Below are positions 220 through 12,455 of a stretch of DNA of 32,000 nucleotides, piece after piece. The position numbers and the translations under genes were made by a program. A model generated the notes under the pieces. That model was not told the DNA's origin. It made no database searches and saw nothing but the letters and a program-made list of their open reading frames with translations. The stretch's first letter is position 1, and every line of letters starts with the position of its first letter. Source of the stretch: an uncultured archaeon (GTDB lineage Archaea; Asgardarchaeota; Jordiarchaeia; Jordiarchaeales; Jordiarchaeaceae); NCBI GenBank assembly GCA_964510585.1, contig CAZECW010000188.1, positions 1 to 32,000 on the forward strand, read 5' to 3'.

Positions 220-1005
220 ATGGGAAAGACAAAGGTTTGGAACTACTTAATGGATATTATTAATGATGGTAGGGCGGTACACTTAACACTGATAGACCCC
301 GATCCACTGAGGCAATCAGCTGAGGTGGCAGGTATTATGGCTAAGTATGCTGCTGAGGCAGGTACAGACGCCTTCATGTTAGGTGGTTCCACTGCATTCG
401 GAATTTTGGACGAAACCATCCTCGAAATAAAAAGGCAAACCGATTTGCCAGTGATACTCTTTCCTGGAAACGTCGCGGGTATTTCAAAATATGCAGATGC
501 GGTATTCTTTATGAGCGTTTTGAACTCCAGAAATCCCTACTATATTATTCGGGCCCAACTCACAGGCGCCCAAGCCATTAAGATATTTGGCCTAGAACCA
601 ATAGGTATGGCTTATTTGATTTTAGAGCCAGGAGGCACCGCTGGCTATATGGGCGAGGCTCAACTTATCCCCCGCAACAAACCCCAGATAGCTGCTGCCT
701 ATGCTTTAGCAGCCCAGTACATCGGTTTCAAGTTGGTTTACCTAGAGGCTGGGTCGGGGGCAGAAGAGAAGGCGCCGCTAGAAATGATTTCAGCCGTTTC
801 TTCAACAATCGATATTCCTCTCATAGTGGGAGGAGGAGTAGAATCTCCAGAACAGGCAGTTGAGGTAATACGTGCAGGCGCCGACATGCTGGTGCAAGGA
901 ACATTCATAGAAAAAACTATTTTGCAGGATAAGGGCGAGAAACTAGCAAAAGTAATCTCAGCAATGAAGAAGGAGAAGAGACTTAAGTCAAAACAAGTGA
1001 AATGA
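220..1005 (+). CDS. Geranylgeranylglyceryl phosphate (GGGP) synthase, group II
   Basis: Motifs LIDPD, GGST, ILFPG, SVLNSRNPYYI, YLILEPGGTAGY, YLEAGSGA and VGGG are typical of this archaeal lipid-synthesis TIM barrel. Confidence 0.95.
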   Translation: MGKTKVWNYLMDIINDGRAVHLTLIDPDPLRQSAEVAGIMAKYAAEAGTDAFMLGGSTAFGILDETILEIKRQTDLPVILFPGNVAGISKYADAVFFMSVLNSRNPYYIIRAQLTGAQAIKIFGLEPIGMAYLILEPGGTAGYMGEAQLIPRNKPQIAAAYALAAQYIGFKLVYLEAGSGAEEKAPLEMISAVSSTIDIPLIVGGGVESPEQAVEVIRAGADMLVQGTFIEKTILQDKGEKLAKVISAMKKEKRLKSKQVK

Positions 1006-2973: not shown

Positions 2974-3738
2974 ATGATTCAGCTAACTTTAATACAGCTT
3001 GACAATTATGGACGATTCACCGAGCTCCTAGGGGCGGATCGGGAGTCCGATTTACAGATTCTACAATCGGAGCTCTATGCGGATCTCCAAAGGATGTTTG
3101 CTCTGAGAAGAGGATTGGTTTTTTATAATCGTTTTGATAACATGCTTGCGGTGTCTAATGGCATATCGGTCCAGGAGCATGAGATGATTTTAAGGAGTGT
3201 GACTAGAAGGTATCCGGTTTCCATTAGTATGGGCATTGGTTCTGCTGAAACGCCTTATGAGGCTCAAGTTCTGGCAACAAAAGTTTTACAAGAGACGGGT
3301 AGCGCCCAGTCGGAGACCCGCAAAGCGATTCTGGCGCAAAAGTCTAATGATAACGGTGGTCAGGAGTATGTTCAGATCGCCCACATAGACATAAATGGCT
3401 TCACGTCGAAAGTCACGGATCGGGAATCCGCTTACCAGAGTACTTATCTTATATATTCTTCTACCTCTATTCTCATGAGAATGTTTGGGGATAAGGGAGC
3501 CCTCCTCTTTTTTAATGGGGGGGATAATTTTATTGCAGTTTGTAATGGTTTGAAGAAGTCTGACTTCAAAGAAATATTTGATAGGTTTGAGACAAGCATG
3601 AACCTGAGGCTTAAAGCAGGCATAGGCTTTGGCAAAAATGCTCTGGACGCTCTGTCAAGGGCGAATATAGGCCTCTCCTTGATTAGGAAGAAGAAGGTAA
3701 ATGATGTAATATTCCTTAACGAAGAAGAGATGCTCTAA
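2974..3738 (+). CDS. arfA: GTP cyclohydrolase III (IIa)
   Basis: IQLDNYGRFT..LG.DRESDLQ.LQ, RFDNMLAVSNG, HIDIN, GGDNF: the duplicated cyclase-like fold of archaeal GCH III. Confidence 0.92.
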   Translation: MIQLTLIQLDNYGRFTELLGADRESDLQILQSELYADLQRMFALRRGLVFYNRFDNMLAVSNGISVQEHEMILRSVTRRYPVSISMGIGSAETPYEAQVLATKVLQETGSAQSETRKAILAQKSNDNGGQEYVQIAHIDINGFTSKVTDRESAYQSTYLIYSSTSILMRMFGDKGALLFFNGGDNFIAVCNGLKKSDFKEIFDRFETSMNLRLKAGIGFGKNALDALSRANIGLSLIRKKKVNDVIFLNEEEML

Positions 3739-3741
3739 GCC

Positions 3742-4923
3742 ATGTCGTACGCCATCTACGCTGACTTCTGCCTAGTGGGGAAAGAACTTCAACTACTTGA
3801 AGACGTGTACATTACGATTTCAGATGAGGGCAAATTTGAGAGCGTCTCGAAGGAAGCCCCGAAGTTTAAAGTCTACTCGATTTTTGAGGACTGCCTCATA
3901 CTTCCCACATTTATAAATGCGCATACCCATGTGGGGGACTCCTTCGCTAAGGAGATGGGATACCAGTATTCCGTAGAGGAAGTGGTAGAGCCGCCACGGG
4001 GACTGAAGCACAGACTTTTGGCAGAGGCTTCCGAGGAAGAGTTGACTTCTGGAATTCGTAATGCTTGCTTGGAGATGTTATCTTCTGGCACATCCACATT
4101 TGCTGATTTTAGGGAGGGAGGACTGAAGGGAATAAATATGCTCAGCCAGGTAACAAGTAGTTTTCCAGTTAAAGCCATAAAGCTTGGAAGACCAAACCAA
4201 GGAACATTCCTAGAAGAACTGCTTCCCCATGTGGATGGTGTAGGATTAAGCTCCACAAACATTTATAGTGACATGGAGCTGAAACAGATTTCGGAAAAAT
4301 GTAAAAAGGAAAATAAACTAATTGCGGTGCACGCCTCAGAAACAGTTAAGGAGCGAGAAATTGCATTCGAGAAATGGGGTGTCTCAGACGTTAAGAGAGC
4401 CATAGATGTTTTAGGTGCAGACATCTTGGTGCACTTGACTCACATAGACGAGGAGGACATGAAACTGCTCAAGGGCAGAAGTGTTGTTTGTTGCCCGCGC
4501 GCCAACGCTTATTTTGGAGTAGGTTTTCCACCAATAGAAAATCTTGTGGAGGAGGGAGTAAGCGTTTGTCTTGGGACGGACAACGTTATGGCTAACTCCT
4601 TAGACCTTTTTAGAGAAATGGAGTTTTTAGGGAAAACACTCCGAGGAAAATATGGTAAAAATGCATTGCACTCCAAAAAAATAATAGAAATGGTTACAGT
4701 TAACCCCGCACAATTGTTTAATCTTGATTCGGGTTGGATAGCGTCTGGGCGAAGTGCAGACTTTATTGTTTTAAATCTGGATGCTCCCAACATTAGACCA
4801 GTAAATGACATTTACCACTCTGTGGTTCACAGAGCAAATTCTGAGAACATTGAATTCGTCTATATTAAGGGAAAAAAGGTTTTCGAGAGAGATTATTTGT
4901 TAAAAAGAGGGCTGGTCTTTTGA
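3742..4923 (+). CDS. Metal-dependent amidohydrolase, deaminase-type (SAH/MTA/guanine-deaminase-like)
   Basis: NAHTH, HASE, VHLTH, CPRAN, GTDN, ADFIVL. Superfamily is clear; substrate is not. Confidence 0.85.
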   Translation: MSYAIYADFCLVGKELQLLEDVYITISDEGKFESVSKEAPKFKVYSIFEDCLILPTFINAHTHVGDSFAKEMGYQYSVEEVVEPPRGLKHRLLAEASEEELTSGIRNACLEMLSSGTSTFADFREGGLKGINMLSQVTSSFPVKAIKLGRPNQGTFLEELLPHVDGVGLSSTNIYSDMELKQISEKCKKENKLIAVHASETVKEREIAFEKWGVSDVKRAIDVLGADILVHLTHIDEEDMKLLKGRSVVCCPRANAYFGVGFPPIENLVEEGVSVCLGTDNVMANSLDLFREMEFLGKTLRGKYGKNALHSKKIIEMVTVNPAQLFNLDSGWIASGRSADFIVLNLDAPNIRPVNDIYHSVVHRANSENIEFVYIKGKKVFERDYLLKRGLVF

Positions 4924-5585
4924 AAAAACCCTATGTTATTCTAAACTCCGCCATGAGTCTTGACGGAAAAATTGCAACTCGAGGAGGAGACTCCGCATTT
5001 TCAGACGAGGAAGACTGGAAGAGAGTACACAAGCTCAGATCCCAAGTGGACGCCATAATGGTGGGGATAAACACCATTCTCCTGGATGACTCCAAACTCA
5101 CTTCAAAAAAGGGAAGGAGCCCCATAAGAGTGGTTGTGGACAGTAAAGCAAGAACACCCCCCAACGCCAGAGTAATCACGGTAAGACCCGAGATAGAAAC
5201 CATAATCGCAATAACAAGCAGAGCCCCTCCAGAAAAAATTGCCAACCTGCAAAGAAAAGGAGCAAAAATAATAGTTTGTGGAGACGGGGAAAAGGTAGAT
5301 CTAGAAATACTCATGGAGAAGCTTTACGAGCGAGGCGTTAGGAATTTACTGCTTGAAGGAGGAGGAAACTTAAACTGGGGAATGCTAAGCAAGGGACTCG
5401 TAGATGAAATCAGAATCGCAATATCTCCAGTAATAGTGGGAGGCGAAAAAGCCACAACCCTAGTGGAAGGAGAAGGATACGCCAAAGTAAGCGAAGGTGT
5501 AAAGCTAGAACAGGTCAACTGTGAACAGGTGGGCAAATGCATAGTCCTCACGTACAAAGTTCTGAACACCAGGAGGGAGGAATAA
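4920..5585 (+). CDS. arfC: 2,5-diamino-6-ribosylamino-4(3H)-pyrimidinone 5'-phosphate reductase
   Basis: KPYVILNSAMSLDGKIA, DAIMVG.NT, P.RVVVDS, LLEGGG, VDEI. RibD C-terminal (DHFR-like) domain only, no deaminase domain. TTG start overlaps the upstream TGA. Confidence 0.93.
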   Translation: MKKPYVILNSAMSLDGKIATRGGDSAFSDEEDWKRVHKLRSQVDAIMVGINTILLDDSKLTSKKGRSPIRVVVDSKARTPPNARVITVRPEIETIIAITSRAPPEKIANLQRKGAKIIVCGDGEKVDLEILMEKLYERGVRNLLLEGGGNLNWGMLSKGLVDEIRIAISPVIVGGEKATTLVEGEGYAKVSEGVKLEQVNCEQVGKCIVLTYKVLNTRREE

Positions 5586-6248
5586 TTGAAGCACGTCATA
5601 TTGCCCATTGGAAGCACAGAACAACATGGACCCCACCTACCACTAGGCACCGACACCTATATCGCAAAAAGAATATCTGAGGCCCTAGCCACAGAGCTAA
5701 AAATTGACCTAGTGCCCACGCTGAGTTACGGGGTATCAGGAGAACACACAGGTTTCCCCGGAACAATTGGCATCCAACCCGAAACACTGTTGAAAACAGT
5801 GGAGGACATCAGTAAAAGTCTATTAAAATGCTACCAAAAGGTCATAATTGTCAACACCCATGGAGGAAACACTCCAACACTCCAAAAATTAAAAAACGAG
5901 AAAATAATCATAGTCGACCTATTTCACGCCCTAAAAGGGATGCTGGAAAACCTGAGAGAAACAGATATGGGAGGAATCTGCCACGCATGTGAAGCGGAAA
6001 CCTCCCTCATGCTATACCTCAAACCCGACCTAGTAAAAAAGGAAAAAATCACCGAGGACATAGTTAAATACGTTCCCCAACTTGACCCACAATCAGAATC
6101 ACCCCTCCCAAATGGCTGGAAAACCATAAACTACTCCCAATCAGGAGTAATTGGAGACCCCACAAAAGCCACACCAGAGAAGGGAAAGAAAATATTTGAC
6201 GCTCTAATCAGAAAAATGTCAGAAAAATTAGAAACTCTCCTAACTTGA
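5586..6248 (+). CDS. arfB: Creatininase-family formamide hydrolase (FAPy deformylase)
   Basis: LPIGSTEQHGPHLPLGTD, YGVSGEH.GFPGT, NTHGGN, HACEAETS, SGVIGDP, in riboflavin operon context. Confidence 0.85.
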   Translation: MKHVILPIGSTEQHGPHLPLGTDTYIAKRISEALATELKIDLVPTLSYGVSGEHTGFPGTIGIQPETLLKTVEDISKSLLKCYQKVIIVNTHGGNTPTLQKLKNEKIIIVDLFHALKGMLENLRETDMGGICHACEAETSLMLYLKPDLVKKEKITEDIVKYVPQLDPQSESPLPNGWKTINYSQSGVIGDPTKATPEKGKKIFDALIRKMSEKLETLLT

Positions 6249-6250
6249 GT

Positions 6251-6305
6251 AAAAAAGATAGTACAGAAAGCCAAGTAGAGCTTAAAAAACCAAAAGGGGA
6301 AAATA
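6251..6305 (-). terminator. Putative oligo-T terminator after the GTPase pair
   Basis: T4-T6 tracts on the minus strand in the convergent gap between arfB and the GTPase. Confidence 0.35.
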
Positions 6306-6322
6306 AGGCACTCCACCTCTAT

Positions 6323-6856
6323 TTATGTGCGATATTTTGGAGTACTAAGAATCTTTTCCGCCAGTTTGTAAAAAGCCATTATCACGTTTTTACCAGTCTT
6401 GGCCGAGGACTCCAAATAATCAACCCCAATACTCCTAGCATAATCAACAGCCTTCTCCCTAGGCACCCTGCGAAAAACAGCCAAATCGTACTTATTTCCC
6501 ACAAGAATCAAAGGAACCTCTTTATTCAAACTAGACCTGATCTGTCCAAGCCAATCTCCCAAACTCTCAAAGCTTTCCTCGCTGGTAATGTCGAAAACCA
6601 GCATAGCACCGTCAGAACCCCTATAAAGAATATTCTCCCCAAAACGGAACTTCTCCTGACCCCCAATTTCAAAAATACTCAAACTAACACGCTTACCCTC
6701 AATGTCCAGCTCCCTATTCGATATGCGAGTAAAGTCCGCTCCCTTGTAACCCTCAATAAAAACCCCATGAACAAACCTACGAGTGATACTCGTTTTACCA
6801 ACCCCAGTGTCACCAGCCAAAACCACTTTGAGCATTAACTCCTTACCAGACACCAC
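6323..6856 (-). CDS. Rab/Ras-like small GTPase with atypical G2 and G3 motifs
   Basis: G1 GDTGVGKT, G4 NKYD and G5 SAK intact; G3 reads FEIGGQ; no G2 Thr; Rab-like YRGSDGAMLVFDIT. Start GTG at 6856 or 6853. Confidence 0.9.
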   Translation of the reverse strand: MVSGKELMLKVVLAGDTGVGKTSITRRFVHGVFIEGYKGADFTRISNRELDIEGKRVSLSIFEIGGQEKFRFGENILYRGSDGAMLVFDITSEESFESLGDWLGQIRSSLNKEVPLILVGNKYDLAVFRRVPREKAVDYARSIGVDYLESSAKTGKNVIMAFYKLAEKILSTPKYRT

Positions 6857-7049: not shown

Positions 7050-7577
7050 TTAGAGACCCTTACTTTGAATAATGCTCTTAGCCAGCGCCAAAAAGGCAGC
7101 CTCTACATTATCTCCTTCCTTGGCCGAGGTCTCAAAGAATGGCGCACCCAAACTCTTCGCGTAATCTTCTCCCTCGCTCCTCTTAACCTCCCTAAGATTC
7201 TTCAAATCACACTTGTTACCAACAACCACCACCGCTGCAACATCATTTGTATTATTCATCATTTCAGTTCTCCAATTTTCAAGATTTTCTAAAGTTGTCC
7301 TACGAGTAACATCATAGACCAAAAGTGCACCAACCGCACCCAAATAGAACCCTGACCTAACATGTTTAAAGTGGGGCTGCCCAGCCAAGTCCCAAATAAT
7401 AAGTTTAACAGAAGTACCCTCAACACTAAGGCTCTTGGCGAAAATATTTGTTCCTAGAGTCATTTTGTAATCTTTCTGAAATTTTCCAGTAATGAATTTT
7501 TCAATTAAGCTTGTTTTACCCACAGCTCCGTCGCCTGCCAGAATTACTTTGTACATTAGTTCTTTGGGTTTGGACAT
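7050..7577 (-). CDS. Rab-like small GTPase, canonical motifs
   Basis: GDGAVGKT, YKMTLG, WDLAGQ, LLVYDVT, NKCD, ETSAK. No C-terminal Cys prenylation motif. Confidence 0.95.
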   Translation of the reverse strand: MSKPKELMYKVILAGDGAVGKTSLIEKFITGKFQKDYKMTLGTNIFAKSLSVEGTSVKLIIWDLAGQPHFKHVRSGFYLGAVGALLVYDVTRRTTLENLENWRTEMMNNTNDVAAVVVVGNKCDLKNLREVKRSEGEDYAKSLGAPFFETSAKEGDNVEAAFLALAKSIIQSKGL

Positions 7578-8273: not shown

Positions 8274-8627
8274 ATGGAAGAGTTGTTGGATGAAGTTCTG
8301 GAGCATATTGGTAAGGCCAAGTCTGCTGAAGATGGCGAGGGTTTAAAGCTTGAGGCTTGGATGGCTCGAGCTAGTTTGGAGCTTTTTCTCATTAAGTTGG
8401 TTCTGCTGCATGGTTTGGAGGAGAGGGAACCGCCTTCTGGGCCTAGTGTGAAGAGGAAGGAGCAGAATAGGGATTTGAAGCTTTTGGGTTTGGCTGAGGA
8501 AAAGGTTAGGGAGGCTCAGCGGGCTTTTGTTAGTGGGGATTATTTTTTGACTTATGAATGTGTTTGGTATGCTAAGAATGCTTTAACTAAGATTGTAACT
8601 TCGGATTCTAAGGTTTCGGGTGGGTAA
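8274..8627 (+). CDS. Hypothetical all-helical protein, 117 aa
   Basis: ATG after GAGGTGAAGTGA; amphipathic helices; no family recognised. Confidence 0.7.
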   Translation: MEELLDEVLEHIGKAKSAEDGEGLKLEAWMARASLELFLIKLVLLHGLEEREPPSGPSVKRKEQNRDLKLLGLAEEKVREAQRAFVSGDYFLTYECVWYAKNALTKIVTSDSKVSGG

Positions 8628-8709
8628 ACCGAGTTTTTGTGGCAGCTTCTGTGGAGTGGTGAAAGGTTTATTTTTGTTTCTTGCTTCTTTTGTTTTTGGA
8701 GTTGATTTT

Positions 8710-9279
8710 TTGAAGACTGGTGTTAGGGTTTTGGGTGTGGCAGAGAGTTTTGTTAAGGGTGCTAGTAAGCGTTCGGTTCTTGCGGGTGTGGTTATGAGGG
8801 GTGATCTTCAGATTGATGGCTTCGCCTTCTCGACAGTTACTGTGGGAGGATTGGACGCAACTGAGGGCGTGCTTAAGCTCTACCGAGTTCTTGATAGAAG
8901 TGATATTAGGTTTCTGTTTTTGAATGGTTGTATCATTAGTTGGTTTAACATTGTGGATTTGAATCGGGTATATGGCGAGTTGAGTATCCCTTTGGTATGT
9001 ATAACTTATGAGGAGTCTGCAGGGTTAGAGAAATACTTTAAGGAGTACTTTTCGGATTGGGAGGAGAGACTGAAGATTTATAGTAGACTGGGAGATAGGG
9101 AGCCCCTTAGGCTTAATACGGGTTATGAGATTTTTGTGCGTTACTTGGGACTGAGCAGGGAGGAGGCGGTAAGGGTTTTGAACAAGTTTACTCTTCAGGG
9201 CTCTGTTCCTGAACCCTTAAAAACAGCTCGCCTGCTGTCTAGGGCGATTATAAGAAGTGGGATTGCAAATTTAGATTAG
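8710..9279 (+). CDS. DUF99 (endonuclease V-like fold) family protein
   Basis: RVLGVAESF, LAGVVMR.D..IDG, VGGLDAT, GCIISWFNIVD, VPEPLKTARL. TTG 8710 after GGAGTTG is preferred over the ORF-track start at 8620. Confidence 0.8.
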   Translation: MKTGVRVLGVAESFVKGASKRSVLAGVVMRGDLQIDGFAFSTVTVGGLDATEGVLKLYRVLDRSDIRFLFLNGCIISWFNIVDLNRVYGELSIPLVCITYEESAGLEKYFKEYFSDWEERLKIYSRLGDREPLRLNTGYEIFVRYLGLSREEAVRVLNKFTLQGSVPEPLKTARLLSRAIIRSGIANLD

Positions 9280-9384: not shown

Positions 9385-9846
9385 TTAGTTTTTCATGTTA
9401 CTCCAGAGAAGGTCTTCTATGGCTTTGAAGTTTATTAAGCGATCTAGATTGTTTCCCTCAAGTATTTTTTGGATTTCACTTTCTAGGTATTCTAGTTCTT
9501 TTTTGTTGTTTTTTCCATCCTTGAATAGAGTGTCGTATTTCTCTTGGAATTTTTTGTAGATTTTTTTGAATTTGGAAATGTCTGATGGTTCCTGTTGGGG
9601 GTCAATTACTGCTATCATTGTGAAGTTCGTGTCTTTGTGGAATATAAACCCGTTTTCGCCTATGACGAATGAGGAGAAGCCATTGTTACTCTTTTTTTCA
9701 GTAAAAACGTTAGAGAAGTCTGATAGTGCGGAGACGAAATTGGTGAGTTCCTTGATGTTTATGTCTCTCTTGGAGTTTTCTTTGATGTATAGTGGTTTTC
9801 CCTCGCTTGATAGTATGTATATGGCGTGAATCAAAAGGTTCACCAC
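9385..9846 (-). CDS. Longin-like domain protein
   Basis: IHAIYILSSEGKPLY hairpin, helix FVSALSDFS, strands FSSFVI / FIFHK / FTMIAVID, helices KKIYKKFQEKY: longin beta-beta-alpha-beta-beta-beta-alpha-alpha pattern. Pattern recognition only. Confidence 0.6.
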   Translation of the reverse strand: MVNLLIHAIYILSSEGKPLYIKENSKRDINIKELTNFVSALSDFSNVFTEKKSNNGFSSFVIGENGFIFHKDTNFTMIAVIDPQQEPSDISKFKKIYKKFQEKYDTLFKDGKNNKKELEYLESEIQKILEGNNLDRLINFKAIEDLLWSNMKN

Positions 9847-11070: not shown

Positions 11071-11568
11071 TTGAAGACGGAAATAACAAGTATCTCAAAG
11101 GAACTCCTACAGAAGTCGATAGACGCTGAGAAACTAAGGTACTGTTACGGGTGTGGTACTTGTACAGCCAGTTGCCCTGTGGCAAAGGTGATCCCTGAGA
11201 GCTTTAACCCGAGGGGGCTGCTTCAGAAAATTTTCTTTGACTTGAGCAAAACATTAGCTGAAGATGAACTTTGGCTGTGCGCTTGGTGCTACTCATGTTA
11301 TGAAAGATGCCCTCAGGGAATAAAAACTACAGAAATTTTTCTCTTAACCAGAAACCTAGCCGTTGAGAAGGGATACTTTCCCAAGCAGCCCACCAACTTA
11401 GTAAAGCAGATTTTGAAGTCTGGACGGACACTGGAGGTGACACCGGCTCGGGATAGGAAACGAGAGGCTCTCGGACTGCCGAAGATTGGGGAAACTGTTT
11501 CAGAGAAGGCGTTGAGAGAAATTAAAATTATAACTGAGAAAAGTCCAACCTGGAGGGTAAGGGGGTGA
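11071..11568 (+). CDS. hdrC: Heterodisulfide reductase subunit C-like (copy 1)
   Basis: CYGCGTCTASCP and LWLCAWCYSCYERCPQG. Confidence 0.9.
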   Translation: MKTEITSISKELLQKSIDAEKLRYCYGCGTCTASCPVAKVIPESFNPRGLLQKIFFDLSKTLAEDELWLCAWCYSCYERCPQGIKTTEIFLLTRNLAVEKGYFPKQPTNLVKQILKSGRTLEVTPARDRKREALGLPKIGETVSEKALREIKIITEKSPTWRVRG

Positions 11569-12455
11569 ATCTGGAATATTCGCTTTTTCCAGGATGTGTG
11601 TCTTCTGCCCGAGAATTTAGCTGCGAAATTTCTGCTCGGAAGGTTTTTGAAGTTTTAAATGTGGAACTCTACGATGTGGAGGATTTTACTTGTTGCATGC
11701 CTGCCTGTTTGGTACATTCCTTTGATTATGCTACTGGACTTGCACTAACTTCAAGAAATCTCTGTGTTGCCGACGAGTTTGATAGAGATATTTTGACACT
11801 TTGCGTTAGCTGTTATGGTAATCTTTGGAGAGCCAAAAAACTCATGTCTGAAAATGGAGACCTTAGACGTAGGGTGGATGAGCTCTTAGCTAGCATAGGT
11901 AGATCTTACCAAGGCAAAGTGGGCATTAAACATTCAATCACTGCCCTATACGAAGACATAGGTCCTAAAAACCTAAAAAACCAGGTTTCTAAACCCCTTA
12001 GGGGAATCAAAGCCGCTCCTTTTTATGGTTGCCATCTTATTCGGCCTAGAGAATACTTGTTCTTTGATGATGCAGAGTTCCCCGAAAAGCTTGATGAGCT
12101 TATCAATGTTACGGGGGCTACCAGCGTCCTGCATAGGGAGAGGACAGGATGTTGCATAGGTTGTGGGAGCTTTTTTGGTGAGGTGGCGGAGGAAGCCGCC
12201 CTAAGATTAAGTGTAGATATTCTAGAGAGCGCGCTGGAGGCTAAGGCGGATTGTGTGGTTGTGACGTGCCCTTACTGTTTTCTCCAGATTGAGATGGGTC
12301 AGCTTCTTTTTAAGAGGAGGACGGGAGAATCATACAATGTACCTGTGCTTAATTACACAGATTTGTTGGGGTTAGCGCTGGGGATTGAACCCCGAGAACT
12401 GGGAATGAATATCCATAAAATAGATCCATCTCCGCTTCTTGAAAAGATTAAGTAA
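11565..12455 (+). CDS. hdrB: Heterodisulfide reductase subunit B-like (copy 1)
   Basis: Two CCG domains: FPGC / TCC / CVSC and YGCH / GCC / CPYC. Confidence 0.9.
   Translation: MNLEYSLFPGCVSSAREFSCEISARKVFEVLNVELYDVEDFTCCMPACLVHSFDYATGLALTSRNLCVADEFDRDILTLCVSCYGNLWRAKKLMSENGDLRRRVDELLASIGRSYQGKVGIKHSITALYEDIGPKNLKNQVSKPLRGIKAAPFYGCHLIRPREYLFFDDAEFPEKLDELINVTGATSVLHRERTGCCIGCGSFFGEVAEEAALRLSVDILESALEAKADCVVVTCPYCFLQIEMGQLLFKRRTGESYNVPVLNYTDLLGLALGIEPRELGMNIHKIDPSPLLEKIK

Follow-up and report, generated by a model that had tools for sequence, protein, structure and literature searches.

Which enzyme removes the 2-amino group from the pyrimidine intermediate of archaeal riboflavin synthesis? 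C2 deamination is among the steps on the archaeal route to riboflavin and the F420 precursor that still have no experimentally assigned enzyme. The question is raised here by an amidohydrolase gene (hereafter, AH) embedded among the riboflavin genes of an uncultured Asgard archaeon. The window that was analysed comprises 32,000 nucleotides (GenBank assembly GCA_964510585.1, contig CAZECW010000188.1, positions 1–32,000). An initial annotation, prepared from the sequence of the window, put AH forward as a candidate for the missing pyrimidine deaminase and suspected that comparative genomics might already have made such a proposal.

The suspicion was well founded. According to Rodionova et al. 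2017 (PMC5397151), MJ0699 and HVO_2483, named 'PyrD', are the candidates for the archaeal riboflavin pyrimidine deaminase, a proposal made from gene clustering and co-occurrence by Osterman et al. in 2010 and again by Rodionova et al. themselves. PyrD is listed there in 15 RbkR regulons, and the prediction is said to be one that 'remains to be tested'. HVO_2483, which is 34% identical to MJ0699 (Q58110), was still a candidate in 2021, with experimental confirmation required, and three steps of the haloarchaeal riboflavin pathway were without an assigned enzyme (Pfeiffer and Dyall-Smith 2021, PMC8305020). A search of the literature outside subscription papers returned no enzymatic or genetic test of MJ0699, HVO_2483, 'PyrD' or any other member of the family. 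The Swiss-Prot label of MJ0699 is 'Uncharacterized protein'.

A compact riboflavin operon

A compact riboflavin operon of seven genes, all on the plus strand, lies within the opening 6.3 kb of the window, in the order ribB-ribC-ribH-arfA-AH-arfC-creatininase. The first gene, ribB (1304–2032), matches PF00926 with an E-value of 6e-52 and TIGR00506 with 229.8 bits (cut-off 177). Its 3' end is overlapped by ribC (2001–2498), which encodes an archaeal-type riboflavin synthase (TIGR01506, 223 bits, cut-off 100.5). The third gene, ribH (2495–2935), encodes 6,7-dimethyl-8-ribityllumazine synthase (TIGR00114, 158 bits, cut-off 84.6). The profile match for ribH opens at residue 35 of the GTG-started reading frame, and the start is likely to be ATG 2495, in an ATGA overlap with the ribC stop codon, or ATG 2519, rather than the GTG at 2429 given in the open reading frame list. 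The arfA gene for GTP cyclohydrolase III (IIa) follows at 2974–3738, with an E-value of 6e-84 to PF05165 and a score of 294.6 bits to NF002587 that falls just below the cut-off of 306. Beyond AH (3742–4923) lies arfC (4920–5585), encoding a pyrimidine nucleotide reductase of 221 amino acids (TIGR01508, 238 bits, cut-off 186; PF01872, E 3e-55), and the operon closes with a creatininase-family hydrolase gene (5586–6248; PF02633, E 1.8e-63, 214 bits), a candidate ArfB-type formamide hydrolase. A GGGP synthase gene is located upstream of the operon (220–1005, plus strand).

The junctions around AH are as the initial annotation described them. The TAA stop codon of arfA ends at 3738 and is followed by GCC and then by the ATG of AH at 3742, while the TGA of AH (4921–4923) and the TTG start of arfC (4920–4922) share the sequence TTGA. 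With a 3-nt gap upstream of AH and the overlap downstream, arfA, AH and arfC are translationally coupled. Two further observations in that annotation were reproduced by profile searches: RibD_C is the sole domain of ArfC, which is therefore a reductase only, and a RibD-type deaminase is absent from the operon, in which no match to PF00383 (CDA-fold deaminase) was found.

Downstream of the operon are two tandem genes for Ras/Rab-like small GTPases on the minus strand (6323–6856 and 7050–7577; Pfam Ras, E 6e-42 and 2.5e-52), of a kind typical of Asgard archaea. An open reading frame of 197 codons on the plus strand (6245–6838), antisense to the first GTPase gene, is probably spurious. Near the GTPases, a 153-residue protein encoded on the minus strand (9385–9846) gives a weak longin-domain match (PF19036, Fuz_longin_1) of 24.3 bits, just below the threshold of 26.1. 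An endonuclease dU gene (PF01949) is found at 8620–9279 on the plus strand, and ferredoxin-like and CCG-domain genes (HdrC/HdrB-like) at 11071–12455, also on the plus strand, open a cluster of heterodisulfide-reductase type.

AH belongs to the MJ0699 family of amidohydrolases

The AH reading frame starts with ATG and encodes 393 amino acids. The protein matches the Pfam family Amidohydro_1 with an E-value of 1.2e-43 and the NCBIfam model NF005552/PRK07213 ('chlorohydrolase') with 318.7 bits, against a curated cut-off of 294; these scores are far beyond chance. AH is the only gene in its own genome to pass NF005552, and its best protein matches come from Candidatus Jordarchaeum, Freyarchaeota and other Asgard archaea. 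The Pfam search returned no PF00383 match in the protein, which is not a member of the CDA fold of RibD and Rib2.

An AlphaFold2 model of AH, built with 16 homologs (pLDDT 93.2, pTM 0.92), has the fold of a (beta/alpha)8 barrel with an N-terminal beta-sandwich extension. The HxH, HxxE, His and Asp motifs that had been noted in the sequence correspond to HTH (residues 61–63), HASE (197–200), H231 (within VHLTH) and D280 (within GTDN). In the model, H61/H63, H197/E200, H231 and D280 are located at the ends of predicted strands 57–62, 193–198, 228–231 and 274–277, and the layout of the metal site conforms to the cog0402 type, with HxH past strand 1, HxxE past strand 5, His past strand 6 and Asp past strand 8.

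The top structural match of AH among Swiss-Prot models is MJ0699 (Q58110), with 34% identity, TM-scores of 0.86/0.89 and an rmsd of 2.0, so that the hypothesis of the initial annotation is the one already published. MTH_994 is second, and thereafter only MTA/SAH and 5'-deoxyadenosine deaminases are found, with 20–26% identity. In the PDB, the top 50 matches are all of cog0402 type (E-values down to 1e-31, TMq 0.70–0.87). The closest solved structures are deaminases and dechlorinases of this subgroup with 15–24% identity, and the matches include the MTA/adenosine deaminases 4gbd, 4dyk, 3lnp and TM0936, the isocytosine deaminase Vcz (8is4), AtzA/TrzN, HutF and guanine deaminases.

These matches bear on a rival explanation, in which AH is a general salvage or repair deaminase of nucleosides or nucleobases (SAH, MTA, 5'-deoxyadenosine, adenosine, guanine or 8-oxoguanine) whose location in a riboflavin operon is incidental. 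We consider it decidedly unlikely, although the best PDB matches, by sequence as well as by fold, are MTA/SAH/adenosine deaminases, and it counts against a role in riboflavin synthesis that the nearest characterized homologs by sequence act on the 6-amino group of adenine nucleosides and not on a 2-amino-4-oxopyrimidine. The TM0936-type enzymes (1p1m, 4gbd, 4dyk, 3lnp, 4f0r), the closest of all solved structures (Foldseek E 1e-28 to 1e-31, TMq 0.79–0.87), share with AH the (beta/alpha)8 barrel and the HxH/HxxE/H/D metal site. However, their identity to AH is 19–24%, AH is shorter by about 40–60 residues, and they differ at the positions where the AH family has GDSxxK, DFRE, R150 and CPRAN, the last being replaced, for example, by CPESN. 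AH moreover falls far below the cut-offs of all the corresponding equivalog models, with 59 bits against 779 for MtaD (NF012037), 105 against 522 for DadD (NF005557) and 65 against 375 for guanine deaminase (TIGR02967). Guanine, isocytosine and 8-oxoguanine deaminases (2uz9, 6ohb, 8is4/7ww2) belong to the same superfamily subgroup and carry out the chemistry on a 2-amino-4-oxopyrimidine ring that would be expected of AH, but they are 16–18% identical to it and their substrates have no ribityl phosphate.

Given these sub-threshold scores and MJ0699 as the top match, AH is assigned to the MJ0699 family, which forms a branch of its own among the deaminase-type amidohydrolases. AH resembles MJ0699, MTH_994 and HVO_2483 in length class (about 380–390 residues) and in the clustering with riboflavin genes, and no functional difference from the family is evident. 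It differs from the members described by Rodionova et al. 2017 (PMC5397151) in its origin from an Asgard archaeon (Jordarchaeia/Freyarchaeia-like), a lineage not named in the available text of that paper, and in its location within a complete seven-gene operon. AH thus adds an Asgard protein to a family that is already known and whose function has been predicted.

Signature residues of the family

Across 80 species, the residues H61, H63, D66, K89, D122, R124, E125, R150, H197, E200, H231, C251, P252, D280, N281, E292 and R364 are invariant, and R253 and N255 are kept in at least 95%. Besides the catalytic residues, these positions make up a family signature of D66, K89, DFRE (122–125), R150 and CPRAN (251–255). 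By the secondary structure of the model, DFRE, R150 and CPRAN are at the C-terminal ends of barrel strands 117–124, 144–149 and 247–250, and overall D66, K89, R124/E125, R150 and R253/N255 are placed at the C-terminal ends of strands beta1, beta2, beta3 and beta7. It is at the C-terminal ends of the barrel strands that the active sites of amidohydrolases are found. The presence of several invariant basic residues in the predicted pocket would fit a phosphorylated substrate.

Other residues take the place of DFRE, R150 and CPRAN in MTA deaminases and in a paralog from the same genome, which argues against AH being a salvage deaminase. This paralog, a DadD/MtaD-like protein of 475 amino acids encoded on the minus strand (contig C22:9662-10762; locus L084:1348-2775), is the only other cog0402-like amidohydrolase of the genome and is 25% identical to AH. 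It was considered as the enzyme that might cover MTA/SAH deamination, but its catalytic HxxE is replaced by HxxQ and it scores below all equivalog cut-offs. Because of the HxxQ, the paralog may not fill the salvage role, a point in favour of the rival explanation, and it provides no argument that nucleoside deamination is covered elsewhere in the genome.

AH is linked to arfC in several archaeal lineages

Conservation of the gene neighbourhood was assessed at 80 AH loci, taking one genome per species, from Asgard archaea (Jord/Frey, Hel, Hod, Thor, Hermod, Wukong and Prometheo lineages), Bathyarchaeia, Nitrososphaeria and Methanobacteriaceae. An arfC gene lies downstream of AH at 56 of the 80 loci, within about 60 nt at 53 of them, and arfA is directly upstream at 25. 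The whole ribB-(ribC)-ribH-arfA-AH-arfC block is present at approximately 20 of the 80 loci. Loci with riboflavin linkage span the Asgard lineages, Bathyarchaeia and Nitrososphaeria. The 18 Methanobacteriaceae loci of the scan show no linkage to riboflavin genes, which counts against the proposed role.

Co-occurrence was examined in 121 Asgard genomes, each at least 80% complete, with clear AH orthologs called at 200 bits or more (or when split at contig ends) and ArfC at 140 bits or more. AH was found in 49 genomes, every one of which also has ArfC, and the two genes are adjacent in 46. Conversely, two of 51 ArfC-positive genomes are without AH. Four of the 121 genomes have weaker versions of both proteins, and the remaining 66 have neither, AH being present in none of the genomes that lack ArfC. 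In one Asgard genus (g17), both genes are present in one genome and neither is found in three others. In a genome of the same genus as the window, the match to the arfC ortholog adjoining AH (G054:C109:44408-45040) runs across two stop codons, a TGA and a TAG; the gene could be a pseudogene, or the stops could reflect an assembly error.

A comparable pattern is seen in 131 genomes of Thermoproteota, where AH was called at E-values below 1e-35. All 30 genomes with AH contain a RibD_C reductase, and the genes are linked in 23. A clear AH ortholog is nevertheless missing from 21 of the 51 RibD_C-positive genomes, and the AH family is therefore not universal. Since the genomes are related and do not represent independent samples, the counts from both groups overstate the support that they give. 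Adjacency and co-occurrence that hold across phyla nonetheless speak against an accidental placement of a salvage deaminase beside arfC. The Asgard and Thermoproteota co-occurrence counts, the signature across 80 species and the finding that the family is not universal are new in this analysis.

Deaminases and divergent relatives in other genomes

No PF00383 protein was found in the genome that carries the window (96% complete), nor in three other AH-carrying genomes. Among the 21 Thermoproteota genomes with a reductase and without clear AH, the PF00383 proteins of six are ordinary cytidine deaminases (TIGR01354), while those of two AH-carrying Thermoproteota genomes are dCMP-deaminase-like. 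None of the PF00383 proteins examined from these eight genomes is RibD-like, and they speak neither for nor against a displacement of AH by a CDA-type deaminase.

Five of the reductase-positive Thermoproteota without a clear ortholog were inspected further, and four of them encode divergent AH-like proteins of 350–386 amino acids (loci L103, L104, L105 and L106 in genomes G173, G165, G149 and G235, respectively). D66, K89, E125, P-R-x-N, D-N, E292 and R364 are kept in these proteins; D122, R124 and R150 are not. No riboflavin genes were found beside them in the five genomes. They may fill the same step as a sister subfamily; alternatively, these Thermoproteota may have another solution for it.

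Other hydrolytic steps and the creatininase-family gene

The initial annotation had taken AH to be the operon's only gene without an assignment. This needs correction, as the last gene likewise lacks a firm one: the creatininase-family protein scores 32.7 bits against the ArfB model NF033501 (cut-off 180) and by this threshold is not an MJ0116-type ortholog, and its best NCBIfam match is to MftE, with 161 bits against a cut-off of 172. Consequently, the ArfB role is also a prediction, and the protein could represent an ArfB-type formamide hydrolase that has diverged. Two further creatininase-family genes are present in the genome (contigs C161 and C32). Members of the family occur in 93 of the 121 Asgard genomes, many of which are without arfC, and the family is too widespread in Asgard for its distribution to be informative as a proxy for ArfB.

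This uncertainty leaves room for AH to act at another hydrolytic step of the pathway, either the ArfB-type deformylation or the dephosphorylation of the ribityl-pyrimidinedione phosphate. In support of such a role, the creatininase-family gene of the operon is no clear ArfB ortholog and is missing from most related clusters, being found at the matching position in six of the 80 loci; the haloarchaeal phosphatase, too, has no assigned gene (PMC8305020). Yet M. jannaschii possesses a characterized ArfB (PMC5397151) in addition to MJ0699, and HxxE together with the ligands for a single metal marks the cog0402 group of deaminases and dechlorinases. Activity at one of these other steps is accordingly judged to be very improbable. 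We know of no phosphatase in the cog0402 subgroup.

A related idea is that the MJ0699-family enzyme is bifunctional, removing the 5-formyl group as well as deaminating C2, where arfA, arfC and AH are present without a recognizable ArfB. Five Asgard genomes with ArfC and AH, one of them 100% complete, have no creatininase-family gene; if these used RibA in place of ArfA, no deformylase would be needed. A bifunctional enzyme, which we regard as exceedingly improbable, would supply both missing activities of the archaeal pathway with a single protein.

Predicted reaction of AH

The reading that we favour is that AH is the metal-dependent deaminase of the ArfC product in archaeal riboflavin synthesis, which, as judged from sequence and genome comparison, is probable. 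The proposal of the initial annotation thus stands at the computational level: AH has a deaminase-type active site, keeps its place beside arfC and arfA in four archaeal lineages and co-occurs almost perfectly with arfC, and its genome encodes no RibD of CDA type. Family membership, fold, motifs, synteny and co-occurrence are observed; the substrate, its place in the reaction sequence and the functions given to single residues are inferred.

AH would work as a mononuclear-metal deaminase of the cog0402 amidohydrolases, catalysing C2 deamination in the synthesis of riboflavin and, where present, of F420. The predicted substrate is the ArfC product, 2,5-diamino-6-ribitylamino-4(3H)-pyrimidinone 5'-phosphate, and the products would be 5-amino-6-ribitylamino-2,4(1H,3H)-pyrimidinedione 5'-phosphate and ammonia. 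In the proposed mechanism, a Zn or Fe ion and its water molecule would be held by H61, H63, H197 and D280, and E200 of the HxxE motif would serve as proton shuttle with the assistance of H231, a scheme shared with guanine, isocytosine and MTA deaminases. Binding of the substrate, at both its pyrimidine and its ribityl phosphate, may fall to D66, K89, R124/E125, R150 and R253/N255.

AH might instead deaminate the ribosyl intermediate before its reduction, in the bacterial order (EC 3.5.4.26), and not the ribityl product of ArfC. The sequence of AH does not distinguish between the two substrates, and its gene sits between arfA and arfC. According to PMC5397151, however, reduction precedes deamination in M. 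jannaschii, the reverse of the order in bacteria, and deamination of the ribosyl form is considered unlikely.

With the ribityl compound as its substrate, AH would resemble fungal Rib2, which acts on the ribityl form (PMC8256712), and its predicted reaction, the hydrolytic removal of the C2 amino group from a diaminopyrimidinone intermediate, is that of Rib2 and of the N-terminal domain of RibD. The fold and active site of AH are nevertheless unrelated to the CDA fold of those enzymes with its HxE and PCxxC motifs. AH would therefore be an analog and not a homolog, a non-homologous replacement of the RibD/Rib2 deaminase.

Implications for archaeal riboflavin synthesis

As the proposal was first published in 2010, the window provides supporting data and a clean example of the operon rather than a discovery. 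Were the MJ0699 family confirmed as the deaminase, a non-homologous substitute for the RibD/Rib2 enzyme would be established and the widespread labels 'chlorohydrolase' and 'amidohydrolase family protein' would be corrected. Such confirmation would also improve the calling of vitamin B2 auxotrophy in archaeal metagenome-assembled genomes, including those of the Asgard lineages that figure in the debate on the origin of eukaryotes.
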